The notes under the pieces: generated by a model
Database searches by the model: none
Seen by the model: only the letters and a program-made list of their open reading frames with translations
What the model was told of the DNA's origin: nothing
Shown here: positions 1 through 50,556 of the stretch, piece by piece
Layout: the number at the start of each line of letters is the position of its first letter
Position numbering within the stretch: the first letter of the stretch is position 1
Program-made: the position numbers and the translations under genes
Assembly (NCBI RefSeq): GCF_041886205.1
Contig: NZ_CP169029.1
Length of the DNA: 64,000 bases
Reading direction: 5' to 3' (one strand)
Source: Escherichia coli
Lineage (GTDB): Bacteria > Pseudomonadota > Gammaproteobacteria > Enterobacterales > Enterobacteriaceae

Positions 1-2970
<2,970 letters not shown>

Positions 2971-3283
2971 GCTTACCTTCCCTGAACGAGCTAACATAAA
3001 TGCGCCCTTTCTAGCACAGCGAAAAAATGTAAATACTGATAGCAATATGATTGAAAATTAATAACTTTTCGTTAGGCAGTTTTGGGTGTGAGTTGCAAGA
3101 GGGGAGACTACTGAATAACTCAAGTTTTATAATCGAGGGGAAAATGGTGATGGCGTTCATAGCAAAACGCCCTCAACCATAAAGGTCGAGGGCGCTTAAG
3201 ATGTTAAAAACCCGCTATCCGTTAAAAAACAATGTTCAACTAAGGTCAGTGACATTGCGCTAAAAAAGCGAATTATTAGAATT

Positions 3284-3359
3284 TGGCTCCTCTGACTGGA
3301 CTCGAACCAGTGACATACGGATTAACAGTCCGCCGTTCTACCGACTGAACTACAGAGGA
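3284..3359 (-). tRNA. asnT: tRNA-Asn
   Basis: Reverse complement reads TCCTCTGTAGTTCAGTCGGTAGAACGGCGGACTGTTAATCCGTATGTCACTGGTTCGAGTCCAGTCAGAGGAGCCA, 76 nt, canonical E. coli tRNA-Asn. Confidence 0.95.
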
Positions 3360-3459
3360 ATCGTGTGAACGGGGCGAATATTACTTAGCGGTACCTTGTC
3401 TGTCAACACTAAATTTCATAAGTCATTTCAATTGGTTAATTAATCTGCAAAGTTGTTAA

Positions 3460-4257
3460 TTAATGAACATTCGTCGCCGAAAACGAGTCTGTATCATTAG
3501 CGTGATGCAGTCTCTGCAAAGGATCTTGTTGATAAAATTGGCAGAAACGTTGCCACAATGAAGGGAAACGAGGAGCAAAAAGTTCTGGGGCGCTAAAGAA
3601 ATATTCAGAAAGTACGGCAAAACATTCAGCAGGATCGCTGGCTGCATAAGCATCAATGCTCGCCGCATTCTCGCCAACCAATTCGATTTCTTCCTGAATG
3701 TTGTTCATTGCAGCATGAAGATCGTGTTCCCAGCCAGCAACCTCACGCAACGGAATAAAGGGAACTCCGCTGGCGCGATCGCCGTTACGGGTGTCCAGCT
3801 TATGAGCGACTTCATGAATAATCAGGTTAAAACCAGAAGCATCAAAAGAATCTTGTATATCCAACCAGTTCAAAACGATAGGCCCTTGCTGCCAGCTCTG
3901 ACCTGACTGAACAATACGTTGGTTATGCACCAGACCGATATCGTCTTCCCATTCATCATCGACCACAAATGGCGCAGGATAAATTAAGACTTCATGAAAA
4001 CCATCCAGCCATTCCAGTCCTAACTCCAGAACGGGTAGGCAAAATAGAAGTGCTATCCGGCAGCTTCTTAATGAATCCAGTTCAAAGCCCTGTAAAGGAA
4101 CAAGCCGCTTTTGCTGTAAAAAACGTTCGGCAAGAGTGACTAATTTGCTTTGTTCCTGTTCCGTCAGACACGTTAAAAGGGGGATCGATAGTGCTTCCTG
4201 CCAGGGAAGGGCAGTTTGATGTGCTGATTCTTGTACTTTCCAGGGCCACTTAATCAT
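3460..4257 (-). CDS. mtfA: Mlc titration factor A (265 aa)
   Basis: ORF 3460-4296; internal start [11 protein letters not shown] matches MtfA N-terminus; ATG confirmed at 4255-4257. Confidence 0.92.
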
Positions 4258-4350
4258 CGTTTTGCTCGCAAACTCGTCACTTGAACAAAATTGCACGGAC
4301 AGGGACTGTTAAAATGCCAAATTTCCTGGCATCATGGCAACCATCTGAAC

Positions 4351-4440
4351 GGAGAGATGCCGGAGCGGCTGAACGGACCGGTCTCGAAAACCGGAGTAGG
4401 GGCAACTCTACCGGGGGTTCAAATCCCCCTCTCTCCGCCA
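4351..4440 (+). tRNA. serU: tRNA-Ser
   Basis: GGAGAGATGCCGGAGCGGCTGAACGGACCGGTCTCGAAAACCGGAGTAGGGGCAACTCTACCGGGGGTTCAAATCCCCCTCTCTCCGCCA, long variable arm, 3' CCA. Confidence 0.95.
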
Positions 4441-5009
4441 CTTTATCAATGACTTATCTCCCGACTTCCCGCCTTGCTTTTCCTAAACAGAACAATCGTA
4501 GAATATTCTTGAAGGGTTAGATCGTCACTGTTTTCTGTTCGATACTGTGACATTCAGCACTTGATTCGCTATGGATCTGACAGGAAGCTTTCGAGCGAAA
4601 ATGTGCAGTTATTCAGTCGTTTTCTTATCGCTCACCATTATTCTTTTAGACATTCATCCTATGAAACTGCCGCAAAGTTGGTGGTGGGAACTGAAGTTGC
4701 GTAGAGAAGGGTTCAATAATTGAGTCAAAAAAGGAACGCGGCCGTCAGATTAAAGCCGCGGGACAAAGTCCATAATTTCCAAGAGTTGTTGAATTTCCCA
4801 GCTTTTTTGAAAGCCTTTGTATCACACTAACAAGTAAAAAAGGTTTAAATACCAAAATTAACCTGTATTTTTGATAAGTCTTACCATTGTACGATTTACA
4901 CAGTTTCTGCTCCTCCTTGTTGATAGTGGAAAGGGTGCATTGTGCACTTGCGTAAACATTTATGACGCGTTGATGTCCATGGTTCACATTTCCTTGTCAG
5001 GGGATCGAC

Positions 5010-5540
5010 TTATTTGCGGCGAGGCATCATTCGTAACAGAGTATTATCTTTCTGAATGTAGTGATGAAAGAGTGCTGCGCCAGCGTGAGCTGCGATTAAA
5101 AAGTAACCTATATTTGCCCAGGTTTCGTGAATATTTTTTATCAGTGCTTTAATTTCGCTGTTTGGGGTAACAAAGGGAGACACATTGAAACCAAGGAAAC
5201 TCCACGATTTTCCACTGTAAGCCATCAAAGCAATCCCCAGCAGAGGAAGTGCAAGGAAGGTTATATAAAGCATGATGTGCATTAGCGAAGCCGCTTTCAT
5301 TTGCCAGGCAGGTGGCGGTGGCACAATAGAAGGATCACTATAACGGTGTTTTATAATCAGGCGTGAAAACATTAACACCCAAACGAATATACCCGCATTG
5401 TAATGTGTTTCTCGCATCAGCAGATAAGTACTACTACCTTTAGGAAACCAGCCACGGAGTTCCATCGCGGCATAGGTTATTGCAACGAAAAGCAGCGTTA
5501 TCCAATGTAAATAAATTTGAGTTTTTGAGAATCGGTTCAT
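5010..5540 (-). CDS. yodB: Cytochrome b561 homolog, inner membrane (176 aa)
   Basis: ORF 5010-5570; internal start MNRFSKTQIYLHWITLLFV matches YodB; hydrophobic, His-rich helices. Confidence 0.88.
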   Translation of the reverse strand: MNRFSKTQIYLHWITLLFVAITYAAMELRGWFPKGSSTYLLMRETHYNAGIFVWVLMFSRLIIKHRYSDPSIVPPPPAWQMKAASLMHIMLYITFLALPLLGIALMAYSGKSWSFLGFNVSPFVTPNSEIKALIKNIHETWANIGYFLIAAHAGAALFHHYIQKDNTLLRMMPRRK

Positions 5541-5883
5541 TTTTGTAGCTCCTGTAATTTTTACAGTCAAGCTATCCCACGAACCTTAAAAATTCCTTAT
5601 ACAGATGTGGTTTTAAGAATTTGTTATTTAAAAAATTGATAGTGCACATTGTAACCAGCCAATATAAGCAATGGCGTGAGCACAGGTATCTTTCTCTGTT
5701 GGCCGTATTGTGTATGGAATCCGTTATTGGTTAACTCAATGCGGGTTAGCTTATTTAATATACAGACACGTCATAGTGATGAGCGTGTCTGTAGCTAGCT
5801 TGCGTTCAGTGGCGTTTGTGGATGGACCAGTGGTAGTTATGATGACTTACTAAAGCGGCATCGAGGCGTTATCATGAGAATAC

Positions 5884-6534
5884 TCAATGAGACATCATTT
5901 CCTCGACCACTTCTTCGCTACTCAACTGATATGGATAAAACGTTGGCCAGTTTTCCATTTCATTTAATAAAGATTGCTGTGAATCATTACCCATAAAAAT
6001 GTGAAAATGAGATGATTTTCGTGGTGCAATTATATGATCGCTAAATTGTATATATTTAGGGGCTTTGCTTTTAGGATCTTTACATTCGAATAAGTAACGA
6101 ACGCCTTTCTTACCTGATTTGTAAGTGAGTATTTTGTATCCATCGTAATCATATTTACAGGATGTTGTTTCATTATTTCTATGGAATTCAACAATGCCGT
6201 CCTCAATGCCAATCATCTCGATATCTGTCGCATAACCTTTGTGATAATAATCTTTAATTTCAGCAAATGTTTTGGTTTTATCTGCATCCGCTTTCTTCTG
6301 AAAGACGGGGCCAAGTTTGCCACTTTGCAGTAAAGGATAAACGGATTGCCAGACTCCATCCCAGTCACTGAGCGTTCGGTTTTGTACATTGGCATCATCA
6401 AAAACACCATTAGCAGCTTTTTGTTCGACCTCTGTTAAGGGTTTGCCGTGTGAGTGATGACCATGCGAAAAGGCAGGAGCGCTAACAATAAAGACACCTA
6501 AAGCAACAGCCAGTTTGTGAAGACGAATCGCCAA
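5884..6534 (-). CDS. zinT: Periplasmic zinc/cadmium-binding protein ZinT (216 aa from probable TTG start)
   Basis: ORF 5884-6555; sequence (L)[29 protein letters not shown]... matches ZinT. GGAGG lies 8 nt upstream of TTG at 6534; the in-frame ATG at 6555 has no Shine-Dalgarno. Confidence 0.88.
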
Positions 6535-11222: not shown

Positions 11223-12074
11223 TTAACCCGCGTAAGCTGCCAGCATTTCCTGCGCCGCCAGTTTACCCAACGCATTCGCTGCGAAAGGACTGTCGCCGGT
11301 GAGAACTTTACGGTCCTTATGTACTCGCCCGGTGATGTCGTCATTAATAATGTTCATGCCCATTTTCTTCAGCTCTTCGCCGAAGTACCAGGTGAGATGA
11401 CCCGGCATATAGCCTATCTCTGGCGTTTGTTTGTCTGCGGCGTCTGGGAATGCGCAAATGGAATAACCATTCAGTGGGTTATCGCCGTGGCGAAGCGCCA
11501 GAAAAGCCGCCGGGCCGTGGCAAAGGGAGATAACAAAACGGTCATTTTTGATTGCCCACTGTAAAGCAGCAGCCACGTCCTGGCTTTCTGGTAAACCAAT
11601 AAGTGCGCCATGACCACCAGGAACAAAGATTGCTGCATATTCGCTATCAGCGTTGAGGCTGGCGACAACATCCGCGAGTTTCTTCGGATTGCGGAACAAC
11701 GATTTATGCTGCTCAAAGAATGGCATTACTTTTTCATCTTTGTGCGGCATAGCCCAGTATTCAAACTTGGTCATCAGACCGGAAATGGTCGCCACTTCGA
11801 ATTCGAAACCTGCAGCATGGAGATGATACAACGGCAGCAACGTTTCAATCGGATGGTTACCAGTCGAGAACAGTTTTCCGTTATCGGTCGGCAAATAACG
11901 TTCGTCCGCGGCGATCACCAGAATTTTATGCTTACCGCGATACGGTTTTGGATAGTCCACGCCATCAAGATCAGAGACGGGACTGGTATATTGGCTAAGC
12001 GAATATTCTGAAGGGAAGAATGCATTATCTTCAGCAATATCGACCTGCGGATTTTTACTTGTTTGAACAGTCAT
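11223..12074 (-). CDS. hchA: Hsp31 glyoxalase / protein deglycase (283 aa)
   Basis: MTVQTSKNPQVDIAEDNAFFPSEYSLSQYTSPVSDLDGVDYPKPYRGKHKILVIAADERYL... full-length match. Confidence 0.95.
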   Translation of the reverse strand: MTVQTSKNPQVDIAEDNAFFPSEYSLSQYTSPVSDLDGVDYPKPYRGKHKILVIAADERYLPTDNGKLFSTGNHPIETLLPLYHLHAAGFEFEVATISGLMTKFEYWAMPHKDEKVMPFFEQHKSLFRNPKKLADVVASLNADSEYAAIFVPGGHGALIGLPESQDVAAALQWAIKNDRFVISLCHGPAAFLALRHGDNPLNGYSICAFPDAADKQTPEIGYMPGHLTWYFGEELKKMGMNIINDDITGRVHKDRKVLTGDSPFAANALGKLAAQEMLAAYAG

Positions 12075-12585
12075 AGTGTATTCCTTATTGTTGCTTAGTT
12101 AGGGTAGTCACTATATTTGCGACTGAGCTGGTCGCTATTTTTAACCAGGCTGGAAAATTGAGTCAATATATCGAAAGCGGTAGTCGGCGGGTGTAAGTAT
12201 GTAATGATGATGCTGCACTGGTGTTGAATATTATTCACGCCAAATTTTCCTTATTGAGCAACGTCGTCGCAAGTGGCCTCAATGATTTTAGACCATTATC
12301 AGAGGTACGGGGCGGCGGGGAGAGATTTAGTGCTGTGGAATATTGTGGTGCTGATGAATATTTATATCCCGGATTGGTAGAGAAAAAGCTTATTTCATGC
12401 ACTATTTTTGCAAATATTTCTATATGGGAAGCGTGTTTGTTACGGGTTAATTCATCAGAATGTGCATTTGGGGTGTTGGCTGGAAGAGTCGCTGGTAGAT
12501 GTTATTGTGCCAGCAGGGGCAGGGTAAGGTACTGTATCGATATGCTTTGGCAATTGCATGTGCCGCAGATGGAGATGAAATGCCA

Positions 12586-12624
12586 ATAAAAAAGCCTGAG
12601 TTCGATGAGGGACGAACTCAGGCT
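12586..12624 (-). terminator. Rho-independent terminator of yedS
   Basis: Perfect inverted repeat AGCCTGAGTTCG / CGAACTCAGGCT (12593-12624) followed on the minus strand by a T-run (plus-strand A-run 12586-12592). Confidence 0.55.
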
Positions 12625-12666
12625 AGTGTTAAGTTTTACAGTAACACGCCGCAGCGCGTTGGCTGA

Positions 12667-13881
12667 TTAGAACTGGTAGACTAAGCCCACAGCAACGATG
12701 TCATCGGTAGCGATGCCGTTGTTTGCGTAGAAGTCATCGTCGTTGTCCAGCAGGTTGATTTTGTAATCAACATAGGTGGACATGTTTTTGTTAAAGTAAT
12801 AGGTTGCACCAACCTCAACGTATTTAACCAGATCTTTATTGGTATAATGATAATTACCATTGTTGTACATTTCTTGACCACCTAAATCCTTACCTTTAGA
12901 TTGGAGGTAAGCAATTGAAGGACGCAGGCCGAAATCAAATTGGTACTGAGCAACAACTTCAAAGTTCTGAGTTTTGTTAGCGATACCACCGCCGCCAAGT
13001 TTCCCATCGGCTGAATGAGAGTCGCTGCTACCATAAGCGGTCATATTGCGAGTCTCTGCATACATTGCTGCTAAATATACATTGTTGGCATCGTATTTAG
13101 CACCAACAGTCCACGCTTCTGCAGTACCACCACCTGCATAGCTATTACCATAGAAATGATTGCCATCTCCATACCCACGAGCAGCTTGGTTATTGGAACG
13201 GTCAGAATTAGAGTAAGCAGCACCCAGACTTAAACCGAAGTCGAAGTCGTAGGAAGTAGACATACCGAAACCATCGCCATTTTCTTTAGCAAGGCTACGG
13301 CCATCTCCGCTGCCAGATCCTTCTTGGCCAAAGAGACTGTCACTGCCACTTTCATTATTACTCTGATATTGCAGCGCAAAGTTCAAGCCATCAACCTGAC
13401 CAAAGAAGCCATTGTTACGGTAGGTTGCAACACCGTTGGTACGACCGTTCATGAAATTGTCGGCACCAGCATAGGTATCGCCACCAAATTCTGGCAGCAT
13501 ATCGGTCCATGCTTCGATGTCATATACGACACCGTAGTTACGACCATAATCGAAAGTACCATTCTGACCAAAACCTAAACCTGCGAAAGCCAGACGGGTA
13601 GCAGAGTTATCTCCATCGCCTTCTGTGCCATTTGCTTGCAGGTTGTATTCCCACTGACCATAACCAGTGAACTGGTCAGCGATCTGAGTTTCACCTTTGA
13701 AACCGATACGGGCATATGACTTGTCGCCATCGCTGCCGGCATCATCAGAGAAGTAGTGCAGGCCCGCTACTTTTCCGTACAAATCCAGTTTATTACCATC
13801 TTTATTATAGATTTCAGCCGCATTTGCTGCGCCAGCAACTAATAACGCCGGGACCAGCATTGCCAGAACTTTTCTTTTCAT
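12667..13881 (-). CDS. yedS: General-diffusion outer-membrane porin of the OmpC/OmpF family, intact (404 aa from MKRKVLAML)
   Basis: Signal peptide [21 protein letters not shown], Gly/Asp/Asn/Tyr-rich beta-barrel composition, C-terminal ...VGLVYQF; SD AAGGGA before ATG at 13881. Confidence 0.85.
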
Positions 13882-14192
13882 TATGTATTCCCTTGTGATT
13901 ATAATCTTCATGAATATATCAATAAGTGCCGTTATCCAAAAAAAAGCACATTTGGATACTATTCTATGAAGTTCATTTTATTTTAAGGATTACATGTAAC
14001 AAATGTATTTAAAAGATTTCAAAATGTTTCTAATCTATTTAATATAATTCAGGATTATGAATTCTAAATATAAATATTCATGAAAATTATAAATGTATAT
14101 CAATATGTTATGAGTTGAGCGGAAGCATAGGGGGTATCAATGATTGTTGCGCCAAACGGCTGGTGTGATCACGCGCACATTAATGAAGGCAT

Positions 14193-14285
14193 AAAAAAAA
14201 GCCGGCATCATGCCGGCCCAAAAAATATAAACAAGACGATAAAAGGCTAATAACGGAAGCATCATGACACAGAATAATAAAAAGG
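14193..14285 (-). ncRNA. rseX: Candidate small RNA (RseX-like) ending in a Rho-independent terminator
   Basis: Minus strand: 7-bp stem GCCGGCA/TGCCGGC (14201-14217) followed by an 8-nt T-run. Upstream segment CGUUAUUAGCCUU is complementary (with G-U pairs) to the ompC RBS region as recalled. Position between yedR and yedS matches where rseX is reported in K-12. 5' end not determined. Confidence 0.45.
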
Positions 14286-14447
14286 TATAATTGTAATCAG
14301 TGCTAATATATTGATTGAATGAATTAATAAAGCCGATCTCAAAGATAAATAAAATCGCTCAAAACGATTTTTCCTGTATTCACTGCCGTTGCGCAAAAAT
14401 TATCTATTTGTTCAAAAAATGAGTGAGTCTTGACTGGCTCATCCAAT

Positions 14448-14813
14448 GTGGAAAAATGTGACTTTTATCACATAATAGTACTAAGTCTGAATTTTCCGGG
14501 TTATCTCAAAATGGAATACGGTTCGACAAAGATGGAAGAGAGACTCTCTCGCAGCCCTGGCGGCAAACTGGCTTTGTGGGCTTTCTATACATGGTGTGGC
14601 TATTTCGTCTGGGCAATGGCGCGTTACATCTGGGTGATGAGCCGGATCCCCGATGCCCCCGTGTCGGGATTTGAAAGCGATTTAGGTTCTACCGCGGGAA
14701 AGTGGTTAGGGGCACTGGTCGGCTTTTTATTTATGGCTCTGGTCGGGGCATTGTTAGGTAGCATTGCCTGGTACACTCGGCCTCGTCCCGCACGTAGCAG
14801 ACGCTATGAATAA
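14448..14813 (+). CDS. yedR: Small inner-membrane protein YedR (121 aa from GTG; alternative starts TTG 14430 or ATG 14511)
   Basis: ...MEYGSTKMEERLSRSPGGKLALWAFYTWCGYFVWAMARYIWV... two hydrophobic segments; start codon uncertain. Confidence 0.8.
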   Translation: MEKCDFYHIIVLSLNFPGYLKMEYGSTKMEERLSRSPGGKLALWAFYTWCGYFVWAMARYIWVMSRIPDAPVSGFESDLGSTAGKWLGALVGFLFMALVGALLGSIAWYTRPRPARSRRYE

Positions 14814-22618: not shown

Positions 22619-22705
22619 AACACATCAGATTTCCTGGTGTAACGAATTTTTTAAGTGCTTCTTGCTTAAGCAAGTTTCATCCCGACCCCCTCAGGGTCGG
22701 GATTT
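22619..22705 (+). ncRNA. dsrA: DsrA small regulatory RNA
   Basis: AACACATCAGATTTCCTGGTGTAACGAATTTTTTAAGTGCTTCTTGCTTAAGCAAGTTTCATCCCGACCCCCTCAGGGTCGGGATTT, matches DsrA including terminator stem-loop and T-run. Confidence 0.93.
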
Positions 22706-35232: not shown

Positions 35233-35525
35233 GTTGTGTGACCTGTTGTTGATTACATCCGATTTTACCGCGTGGGCATGGATGGGGCAAACTCACTCAA
35301 TTTCTGGTTTAAAATGGATACCTGATCCTGAAAGTTTTCTGCCATCCACGATCCGTATACGCGATAAACCCTCTGATCATCAGAGCCCTCATTTGATACA
35401 CATCACCACGTCGGATGTTGTTACGACCGCAGACGCAACAGTAACGTTTGAATAATTTAATCTTTGTTGATGTTTTTATTCATATTCCGGGCTAGGGAAA
35501 TAATCAGGCGTAATTGTGTCACTGG

Positions 35526-35594
35526 AATAGAGGTTTCTTGTGGCGCATGTGGAAGGAGCGTCTACTTTGTCTAATAGAGATTTCTTATGACGCA
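35526..35594. repeat. Imperfect 22-bp direct repeat pair, spaced 47 bp start-to-start, in the yedK-fliE convergent intergenic region
   Basis: AATAGAGGTTTCTTGTGGCGCA (35526-35547) versus AATAGAGATTTCTTATGACGCA (35573-35594): 19 of 22 identical, all three differences are G/A transitions. Confidence 0.5.
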
Positions 35595-42484: not shown

Positions 42485-43807
42485 ATGGCACAAGTCATTA
42501 ATACCAACAGCCTCTCGCTGATCACTCAGAACAACATCAACAAAAACCAGTCTGCGCTGTCGACTTCTATCGAGCGCCTCTCTTCTGGTCTGCGCATTAA
42601 CAGCGCTAAAGATGACGCTGCGGGCCAGGCGATTGCTAACCGCTTCACTTCTAACATCAAAGGTCTGACTCAGGCCGCACGTAACGCCAACGACGGTATC
42701 TCTCTGGCGCAGACCACTGAAGGCGCACTGTCTGAAATCAACAACAACTTGCAGCGTGTTCGTGAACTGACCGTTCAGGCCACTACCGGTACTAACTCTG
42801 ATTCTGACCTGTCTTCAATCCAGGACGAAATCAAATCCCGTCTCGATGAAATTGACCGCGTATCCGGTCAGACTCAGTTCAACGGCGTGAACGTACTGGC
42901 AAAAGATAACACCATGAAGATTCAGGTTGGTGCGAACGATGGTCAGACTATATCCATCGACCTGCAAAAAATCGACTCTTCTACTCTTGGTTTGAACGGT
43001 TTCTCCGTTTCTAAAAATGCTCTCGAAACTAGCGAAGCGATCACTCAGTTGCCGAACGGTGAGAATGCCCCAATCGCTGTGAAGATGGATGCGTCTGTTC
43101 TGACCGATCTTAACATTACTGATGCTTCTGCTGTTTCGCTGCACAACGTAACTAAAGGTGGTGTCGCAACGTCTACTTATGTTGTTCAGTATGGCGATAA
43201 GAGCTATGCAGCATCTGTTGATGCGGGAGGTACAGTAAAACTGAATAAAGCCGACGTAACATATAACGACGCAGCAAATGGTGTTAAGAATGCCACCCAG
43301 ATTGGTAGTCTGGTTCAGGTTGGTGCTGATGCAAACAATGATGCAGTTGGTTTTGTTACCGTGCAGGGGAAAAACTATGTTGCTAATGACTCATTAGTCA
43401 ATGCTAATGGCGCTGCTGGCGCTGAAGCAACTAGAGTTACAATTGATGGTGATGGTACTAACCAGGCTAAAATTGAACTTAGCCAAAATGGTGATACTGC
43501 TGCAACATCAGAGTTCGCTGGTGCTTCAACCAACGATCCACTGACTCTGCTGGACAAAGCTATCGCATCTGTTGATAAATTCCGTTCTTCTTTGGGGGCG
43601 GTACAGAACCGTCTGAGCTCCGCTGTAACCAACCTGAACAACACCACCACCAACCTGTCTGAAGCGCAGTCCCGTATTCAGGACGCCGACTATGCGACCG
43701 AAGTGTCCAACATGTCGAAAGCGCAGATTATCCAGCAGGCAGGTAACTCCGTGCTGTCCAAAGCTAACCAGGTACCGCAGCAGGTTCTGTCTCTGCTGCA
43801 GGGTTAA
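42485..43807 (+). CDS. fliC: Flagellin FliC (440 aa; H-antigen allele shorter than the K-12 allele)
   Basis: MAQVINTNSLSLITQNNINKNQSALSTSIERLSSGLRINSAKDDAAGQAIANRF... conserved N and C termini (…VPQQVLSLLQG) with a divergent central domain. Confidence 0.97.
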   Translation: MAQVINTNSLSLITQNNINKNQSALSTSIERLSSGLRINSAKDDAAGQAIANRFTSNIKGLTQAARNANDGISLAQTTEGALSEINNNLQRVRELTVQATTGTNSDSDLSSIQDEIKSRLDEIDRVSGQTQFNGVNVLAKDNTMKIQVGANDGQTISIDLQKIDSSTLGLNGFSVSKNALETSEAITQLPNGENAPIAVKMDASVLTDLNITDASAVSLHNVTKGGVATSTYVVQYGDKSYAASVDAGGTVKLNKADVTYNDAANGVKNATQIGSLVQVGADANNDAVGFVTVQGKNYVANDSLVNANGAAGAEATRVTIDGDGTNQAKIELSQNGDTAATSEFAGASTNDPLTLLDKAIASVDKFRSSLGAVQNRLSSAVTNLNNTTTNLSEAQSRIQDADYATEVSNMSKAQIIQQAGNSVLSKANQVPQQVLSLLQG

Positions 43808-50098: not shown

Positions 50099-50556
50099 TT
50101 ATTTTCCTCGTCATGTTGCAATGAAAATTTGCGGTGAAAAATGTTAAGGCGGCGGAGTATACCATAAGCTTTGCTAAAAATAGCAGTGGTTGTTTTTTGA
50201 GCGTGCCGTCAACGGTGCTATTAAATGCGTTAATATAATGACCAATAAATATTTTTATCATGAATGTTTTTTGCCCGTATTGTTCGGGTTAATTAATGTT
50301 ACATATTCAGCGGGCTGATTTTCATTTTTGCTGAATAAAGGTAATTTTTGTCACATTTCGTCGCAGGGCTTACTGTGAAACGATCCGGTAAGCCGTTGGT
50401 GACGGGCGTGACCATAACTGTGGACAATCGAATTGACAAAAACGAGAGAAAAATCGAATACCCACCATTTTTAACGTTTCAAAGTTGCAATAAAAACCGC
50501 TAATATACGAATGACTAACTATCAGTAGCGTTATCCCTATTTCTGGAGATATTCCT

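Follow-up and report, generated by a model that had tools for sequence, protein, structure and literature searches.

The porin gene yedS occupies positions 12667–13881 on the minus strand of the 64,000-nucleotide stretch of Escherichia coli DNA that we analysed (hereafter the window; contig NZ_CP169029.1). Its open reading frame spans 1215 nt, comprising 404 codons followed by a TAA stop codon, and the ORF list and its translation contain no internal stop and no frameshift. The first-pass annotation, which had described a complete 404-codon gene at this position between hchA and yedR, agrees in all these respects with the ORF list and the annotation; the minus strand is our addition to it. We annotate the coding sequence (CDS) as a general diffusion porin precursor on the basis of the open reading frame, the Pfam family PF00267 and an identical annotated CDS in E. 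coli ECONIH5. A longer, 414-amino-acid reading frame from an in-frame ATG at 13911, 10 codons upstream, was rejected: it lacks a Shine–Dalgarno sequence, and the homologues and RefSeq all begin with MKRKVL (13881).

The gene carries a full set of expression and export signals, each of which had been claimed for it earlier and each of which we could locate. The Shine–Dalgarno sequence AAGGGA (13889–13894, minus strand), read directly from the sequence, lies 7 nt 5′ of the ATG, an arrangement also seen in the translation initiation regions of ompF and ompC. The first 21 codons (13819–13881, minus strand) encode a signal peptide with cleavage before AEIYNK, as assigned by alignment with OmpC, OmpF, PhoE and OmpN, in which it matches OmpC, OmpF and OmpN column for column. 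This signal peptide is nearly identical to that of OmpC and ends in Ala-X-Ala, and the start of the mature protein fits AE(I/V)YNKDGNK. Beginning 42 nt past the stop codon, the terminator scan identified an intrinsic terminator (12593–12624, minus strand) with a 12-bp stem that includes seven G–C pairs, followed by a T-run (TTTTTATT).

On either side of yedS lie hchA (11223–12074, minus strand) and drpB, also known as yedR (14532–14813, plus strand), within the order hprR-hprS-hchA-yedS-rseX-drpB-yedJ-dcm-vsr, which equals the K-12 order read in the opposite direction. The earlier placement between hchA and yedR is thus correct but overlooked rseX, an Hfq-binding small RNA (sRNA) gene that lies in the same interval (14194–14283, minus strand). 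Its full-length match to Rfam RF01401 scores 97.7 bits (gathering score 50), and K-12 carries b4603 in the same place. The terminator scan also found a terminator belonging to rseX itself (14219–14199, minus strand). The two genes share a strand, with rseX directly upstream of yedS at a distance of 313 nt. No mobile-element genes flank yedS within the window, and the GC content of its CDS, approximately 46–48%, is unremarkable.

Positions 12500–14450 of the window are 100% identical to E. coli ECONIH5, in which the CDS has the same coordinates and is annotated as ‘ompC: porin OmpC’ (WP_000824347.1). Elsewhere, the aligned parts of the window match ECONIH5 at 91–99% identity, with differences in insertion sequences and islands. 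Because identical DNA exists in independent genomes, a hidden frameshift that results from sequencing error is unlikely.

The encoded protein matches Pfam Porin_1 (PF00267) end to end (residues 27–404, profile positions 1–337 of 337; 471.7 bits), with an E value of 2.1e-141 that places the assignment far beyond chance. A total of 48 solved enterobacterial porins match YedS at E < 1e-94. The best of these is Klebsiella OmpK37 (E 2.3e-145), followed by OmpK36 and OmpC, with OmpF and PhoE more distant. Among the K-12 paralogues, BLASTP identity is highest for OmpN (66.6%; 70–71% over aligned columns), then OmpC (60.6%), OmpF (54.5%) and PhoE (53.8%). Membership of the OmpC/OmpF family, as originally proposed, is thereby upheld, with the refinement that the protein is closer to OmpN and OmpK37 than to OmpC.

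In OmpF, the pore is constricted by charges, with the acidic residues D113 and E117 facing the basic residues K16, R42, R82 and R132. All six constriction residues are kept in the YedS precursor (K37, R58, R96, D127, E131 and R147). The constriction loop L3, which has a PEFGGD motif, is encoded at 13432–13494 (minus strand), and D127 and E131 in this loop correspond to D113 and E117 in OmpF numbering. The protein ends in VGLVYQF, and F404 is invariant across the alignment; a C-terminal phenylalanine is the usual signal for outer-membrane assembly in porins. An AlphaFold2 model built from an 18-sequence alignment has 17 strand segments at only moderate confidence (mean pLDDT of 62.4, pTM of 0.64). 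Its low-confidence parts are the signal peptide and residues 85–91, 130–150, 176–200, 234–250, 284–298 and 336–343. This strand pattern is compatible with a 16-stranded β-barrel, a fold that is strongly implied by the 60–70% identity to solved porins.

YedS is longer than OmpC (404 compared with 367 amino acids), and the 37 extra residues are loop insertions that coincide with loop segments of low pLDDT. The corresponding hypervariable part of the gene (12853–13356, minus strand) encodes the long loops at residues 176–200, 234–250, 284–298 and 336–343, which are insertions relative to OmpC, OmpF and OmpN and have a pLDDT below 50. Taken together, these features point to a general diffusion porin that is structurally complete, is of the OmpN/OmpK37 type and has extended loops. 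Such a protein would be exported by Sec and would form a 16-stranded β-barrel of the OmpC/OmpF/PhoE/OmpN family, the pore of which is predicted to be narrowed by L3, with the acidic pair D127 and E131 opposite a basic ladder of K37, R58, R96 and R147.

The RefSeq and PGAP label ‘ompC: porin OmpC’ suggests a different identity, in which the gene would be another copy of ompC or an allele of it. The protein does exceed the cut-off of the NCBIfam OmpC model NF007841 (542.7 bits compared with 484), which is why it receives the name ‘porin OmpC’, and PGAP gives the name ompC to the porin in the yedS slot of many genomes. However, NF007841 is a ‘subfamily’ model rather than an equivalog; the best solved relative is OmpK37, and neither OmpC nor OmpK36; and the true ompC adjoins micF and rcsD at another locus, whereas the gene in the window occupies the yedS slot. 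A duplicated ompC allele, which the first-pass annotation had named as the outcome that would overturn its call, was ruled out by this difference in locus together with the BLASTP identities (60.6% to OmpC, below the 66.6% to OmpN), and we consider an ompC identity barely credible. The ‘ompC’ label is a naming artefact, through which many E. coli genomes acquire two ‘ompC’ genes. This second ‘ompC’ can mislead genome-based resistance screens that rely on counts of ‘ompC’ genes or on the loss of ompC.

At the corresponding position, K-12 MG1655 has the annotated pseudogene yedS (b4496), which PGAP flags as ‘frameshifted; internal stop’. Set against an intact allele of the same type, from strain 23CRST004, it shows two lesions: a C484T substitution that converts codon 162 from CAG to TAG, and the loss of a single nucleotide at nt 663. 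The statement in the first-pass annotation that yedS is broken in K-12 is thereby confirmed, with an amber codon at position 162 and the deletion at nt 663. In the window, codon 162 is CAG (13396–13398) and the deletion at nt 663 is absent. A single blastn alignment to K-12 covers 14533–12200 of the window at 90.8% identity, and synteny and full-length colinearity with b4496 support the assignment of the window gene as a yedS orthologue.

The gene is not simply the K-12 allele without its lesions, as the CDS alone is only 85.1% identical to that of K-12. Identity falls to 66–80% in the region that encodes the long loops (13350–12851) compared with 92–100% elsewhere. The strain had been described as non-K-12, which fits both this divergence and the closest complete genomes: over its first 25 kb, the window is best matched by those of wild isolates, at 99.6% identity.

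An intact yedS is not distinctive: it is the norm outside K-12 among the loci that we sampled. Ten of the 12 annotated non-K-12 E. coli loci have an intact gene; MS 198-1 has an internal stop, and in S1-CAM-01-C the gene has been lost next to an IS3 element. In a thirteenth non-K-12 case, NZ_CP147009.1, an otherwise identical allele is split by IS1, as read from its row in the search table. With pseudogenes in K-12 and MS 198-1, the IS1 insertion and the IS3-linked loss, the locus is dispensable. In a megablast search with the CDS only, the window allele (at least 99% identity) is present in 256 of 5,426 complete E. coli genomes (approximately 5%), and 537 of the 5,426 have no match to the CDS. 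The 90% protein cluster that contains it has 664 members. The exact protein (WP_000824347.1) is already in RefSeq, and a functional YedS was published in 2013; the finding of an intact gene is thus correct but already known.

The arrangement yedJ-drpB-rseX-porin, with an intact porin, holds for each of the six species representatives in which rseX is present; outside E. coli, we observed it in E. albertii, E. whittamii, two further Escherichia species and C. amalonaticus. Comparisons of the window allele with other E. coli alleles and with E. albertii, E. whittamii and another Escherichia species yield a dN/dS of 0.07 outside the variable loops and 0.2–0.5 within them, at a dS of 0.4–0.7. We infer from these values that yedS is kept under purifying selection.

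The dispensability of the locus could also be taken to mean that the gene is an intact-looking but functionless relic that is never expressed and has not yet acquired a lesion. Breakage or loss without obvious cost in K-12, MS 198-1, NZ_CP147009.1 and S1-CAM-01-C fits this idea, as do several features of expression: the AT-rich, probably silenced leader, the lack of a promoter above chance in our consensus scan, and the rarity of human antibodies to YedS (1 of 141; PMC11242715). A dN/dS of 0.07 in the non-loop part of the gene over a dS of 0.4–0.7 argues against such a relic, as does the retention of every pore-lining residue, of the intact gene in most annotated non-K-12 loci and in five other species, and of hundreds of intact YedS protein clusters in the protein database. 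A functional YedS has also been reported (Warner et al. 2013, cited in PMC4048246). We therefore regard the relic explanation as quite improbable.

The yedS slot holds porins of very different kinds in different E. coli strains. In an even-step sample of 60 CDS megablast matches, four rows are of the window type (404 amino acids), seven are of the K-12 type (397 amino acids) and nine are of a 395-amino-acid type that includes E. coli C and O157:H7. A further four rows belong to class B (387 amino acids), 20 to class C (357–371 amino acids, including ST131) and 14 to class D (350–352 amino acids), and the other two are one partial match and one hypothetical protein. The protein encoded by the window allele is 72–73% identical to class B, 62% identical to class C and 59% identical to class D. 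Identity between the window allele and classes B–D is as low as that between OmpC and OmpF. For classes C and D, the closest porin is Klebsiella OmpK35, which is of the OmpF type, and not OmpK37, and in a distance tree these classes fall outside the group formed by OmpC, OmpN and the class A YedS proteins. By sequence comparison, two classes are OmpN/OmpK37-like, including the rare long-loop form in the window, and two are OmpF/OmpK35-like.

The divergence between classes is confined to 13850–12651, and the flanks, which comprise rseX, the leader, the signal-peptide codons and the terminator, are 96–100% identical. By region, identity across classes is 97–100% for the leader, 96–100% for the signal-peptide codons and 96–99% for the terminator. 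In genomes in which the remainder of the gene is too divergent, only 93–110 nt of the signal-peptide region match, at 96–97% identity. Within class A, dS between the window allele and other E. coli alleles is 0.43–0.53, which would be far above typical within-species values.

A sharp boundary between a divergent porin and nearly identical flanks, together with a dS of 0.43–0.53 relative to other class A alleles of E. coli, is what would be expected if a foreign porin gene had recently been imported by horizontal transfer, rather than descending from an ancestral E. coli gene. A possible Salmonella origin of the rseX–yedS region has also been mentioned (PMC8313858). However, E. albertii, E. whittamii and two further members of the genus also have this slot, with its flanks and a porin of the class A type. 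The gene family found here is therefore ancestral to Escherichia. The unremarkable GC content of the CDS and the lack of flanking mobile-element genes likewise argue against import, and although alleles have probably been replaced by homologous recombination, such replacement is exchange within the locus and not a new acquisition. We consider recent import unlikely.

The mature-porin part instead looks like a segment that has been exchanged, or that has been kept as very old alternative forms. We tentatively hypothesize that the yedS position may be a porin ‘cassette slot’, in which the promoter region, rseX, leader, signal peptide and terminator are constant and the mature part takes one of at least four classes that are 59–73% identical and 350–404 amino acids in length. 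Long-term balancing or diversifying selection, by phages, colicins or immunity, might maintain these classes; this is a possibility that we hold loosely. Such selection would act on a gene that is usually dismissed as a pseudogene. The divergence between classes also suggests that pore size may genuinely differ from strain to strain. We found no earlier description of this class pattern in the searchable literature, which covers yedS sparsely.

The leader or regulatory region between yedS and rseX (13882–14193, minus strand; 313 nt) has a GC content of only 20% at 13900–14099 in the composition profile. Our consensus scan for σ70 promoters in this leader returned 7 matches compared with 6.2 expected in shuffled sequences, none of them above chance; the promoter-like matches at 14068–14041 and 14002–13975 have a frequency like that in the shuffles. 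A CRP-type site (TGTGATCACGCGCACA; 14164–14179, plus strand), the only match in the window, lies 283 nt upstream of the yedS ATG and 15 nt past the 3′ end of rseX. At the corresponding K-12 site (2033766, ggTGTGAtcaggcGCACAtta), purified CRP bound in genome-wide Footprint-seq, and the site was assigned to yedS (PMC12871828).

The 20%-GC leader and the CRP-type site suggest that yedS is normally silenced. Because this leader resembles an H-NS target, the gene is probably silent or only weakly expressed in ordinary growth. The neighbouring gene has been described in similar terms: RseX can be detected only once H-NS, together with StpA, has been removed, such that rseX is silenced by H-NS and StpA (PMC8313858). 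Among 141 healthy people, only 1 had serum antibodies to YedS (PMC11242715), a rarity that fits either low expression or an allele mismatch.

When σE is induced in K-12, yedS (ompS1) mRNA decreases by 2.5-fold, alongside ompC, ompF, ompN and phoE (PMC2731931). We identified with RNAduplex a predicted pairing site for the σE-dependent sRNA RybB at codons 2–7 of yedS (AAAAGAAAAGUUCUGGCA; 13861–13878, minus strand). Nucleotides 1–16 of RybB pair with these codons at a ΔG of −17.2 kcal/mol (z −3.4), and 1 of 300 shuffles was as good; the predicted position is the same as that predicted in ompN. By megablast, the RybB query sequence is present in 5,418 of the 5,426 genomes. We infer that yedS mRNA, when it is made, is probably lowered by RybB through pairing with codons 2–7.

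Control of YedS by another sRNA, MicF, was reportedly described by Warner et al. in 2013. Predicted pairing between MicF and yedS did not exceed chance in either region that we considered (−40 to +21, ΔG −7.7, z +0.7; −313 to +90, z +0.8), despite a strong result for ompF, which served as the positive control (ΔG −27.1, z −5.5). MicF control of yedS thus finds no base-pairing support in these two regions.

Considering all of these observations, we favour a picture in which the gene is the intact chromosomal yedS of a wild E. coli, known in the literature also as ompS1, and encodes a quiescent back-up porin. We assign this explanation as a whole a probability of roughly 85%. The features of the protein are read from its sequence, and the proposed expression and permeability roles are extrapolated from them and from the leader. 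Under this explanation, YedS would serve as a reserve channel through which small hydrophilic solutes, β-lactams among them, could enter the cell, chiefly after loss of OmpC and OmpF. A functional YedS that affects the resistance of a clinical isolate to carbapenems was reported by Warner et al. 2013 (AAC 57:1935), according to the summaries of that work in PMC4048246 and PMC11267920. The same paper is cited in PMC8537846, and the link to carbapenems rests on this one paper.

For the strain analysed here, the effect of YedS on permeability is putative. In itself, the gene matters little, other than showing that the strain is a natural isolate. It represents one potential back-up porin, which could influence the entry of β-lactams and carbapenems if OmpC and OmpF were lost. 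The type of porin in the yedS slot differs greatly by strain, and conclusions about YedS that are drawn from K-12, or from a single isolate, should not be extended to others.

The window gene has much in common with several known systems. It shares with K-12 yedS the chromosomal slot (between hchA and rseX–drpB), the signal peptide, the leader and the terminator, and the whole gene is colinear; the K-12 type is 397 rather than 404 amino acids in length, and the intact K-12-type allele is approximately 88% identical at the protein level. With OmpC it shares family, fold and a near-identical signal peptide, whereas the neighbouring sRNA gene is micF for ompC and rseX for yedS.

Salmonella OmpS1 is a quiescent porin that is silenced by H-NS, a mode of control that is compatible with the AT-rich leader of yedS. 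The connection between the two is one of naming: yedS and ompS1 are used as synonyms (PMC2731931), and one protein is listed in the database under the name ‘outer membrane protein S1 [E. coli KTE142]’. Our rseX pattern scan returned no Salmonella rseX locus. A search seeded with the Citrobacter protein recovered mainly OmpD-, NmpC- and Lc-type names, and the one Salmonella homologue that we traced lies in an unrelated context flanked by insertion sequences.

The closest parallels are OmpK37 and OmpN; these are ‘quiescent’ porins with poor expression and long loops, features that YedS may share. OmpK37 (PDB 6v78; E 2e-145) is the closest solved structure, and OmpN is the closest K-12 paralogue, but the ompN locus is elsewhere, beside micC and ydbK. 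YedS has additional insertions of approximately 10–15 residues in three loops. At the RNA level, yedS and ompN have in common the predicted site of RybB pairing at codons 2–7.

The chromosomal slot that yedS occupies (between hchA and rseX–drpB) holds other intact porins in E. coli. In other strains (loci L011–L016), the slot encodes porins of 352–387 amino acids that share just 59–73% identity with the window protein, despite signal peptides and flanks almost identical to those of the window. The nearest relative of the class C and D porins is the OmpF-type Klebsiella porin OmpK35, not OmpK37, the porin of solved structure closest to the YedS of the window. In the class B alleles (L011:871-2031 and L012:869-2029), three of the six pore-constriction residues are changed (in OmpF numbering, R42E, R82K and E117V), substitutions that hint at an altered charge selectivity of the predicted pore.

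Strain FACU 2024 (NZ_CP147009.1 3471097-3473088, database match H31) carries an allele 100% identical to that of the window but split by an IS1A insertion, a further and independent way in which yedS can be lost. An IS3-family element stands in place of the entire rseX–yedS segment, between drpB and hchA, in S1-CAM-01-C (L018, NZ_CP145718.1). PGAP names class A and B alleles, including the K-12 pseudogene, ‘ompC: porin OmpC’, and many genomes consequently have two ‘ompC’ genes. The Citrobacter amalonaticus slot porin is named ‘phosphoporin PhoE’ by NCBI.

The window differs from its close relative ECONIH5, in which the yedS region is 100% identical, at 1-5900, 35492-35573, 42984-43549 and 50405-50413. 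It lacks the IS66 element and integrase that ECONIH5 carries beside tRNA-Asn, starting instead within yeeJ, and it has neither the DUF5503 pseudogene segment nor, near uvrY, the IS903B insertion. The two sequences cannot be aligned across the middle of fliC, which suggests that their H antigens differ.

On the strand opposite to yedS, between its terminator and hchA, lies a 122-codon GTG open reading frame (12221-12589, +) that is probably spurious; some genome annotations have a ‘hypothetical protein’ at the matching spot (WP_001325374.1 and WP_152921192.1). Flanked by yedP and rcsA, the usual arrangement in E. coli, is the DsrA sRNA gene (22619-22705, +; Rfam RF00014, 102.5 bits).

YedS is reportedly regulated by MicF. 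Base-pairing of MicF with the yedS start region (13841-13921) and leader (13792-14194) was no better than chance, and the MicF–ompF control paired strongly in the same test. A CRP-type site, TGTGATCACGCGCACA (14164-14179, +), between the rseX terminator and yedS is a candidate regulatory site for yedS; CRP binds the homologous K-12 site in vitro (PMC12871828).

The first-pass annotation omitted rseX from its description of the yedS surroundings, and we amend it here: Rfam RF01401 (97.7 bits) places this sRNA gene at 14194-14283 (−), immediately upstream of yedS and on the same strand. It is also absent from the PGAP annotation of ECONIH5. The yedS–rseX pair resembles ompC–micF and ompN–micC, in which a porin gene likewise has a neighbouring sRNA gene.
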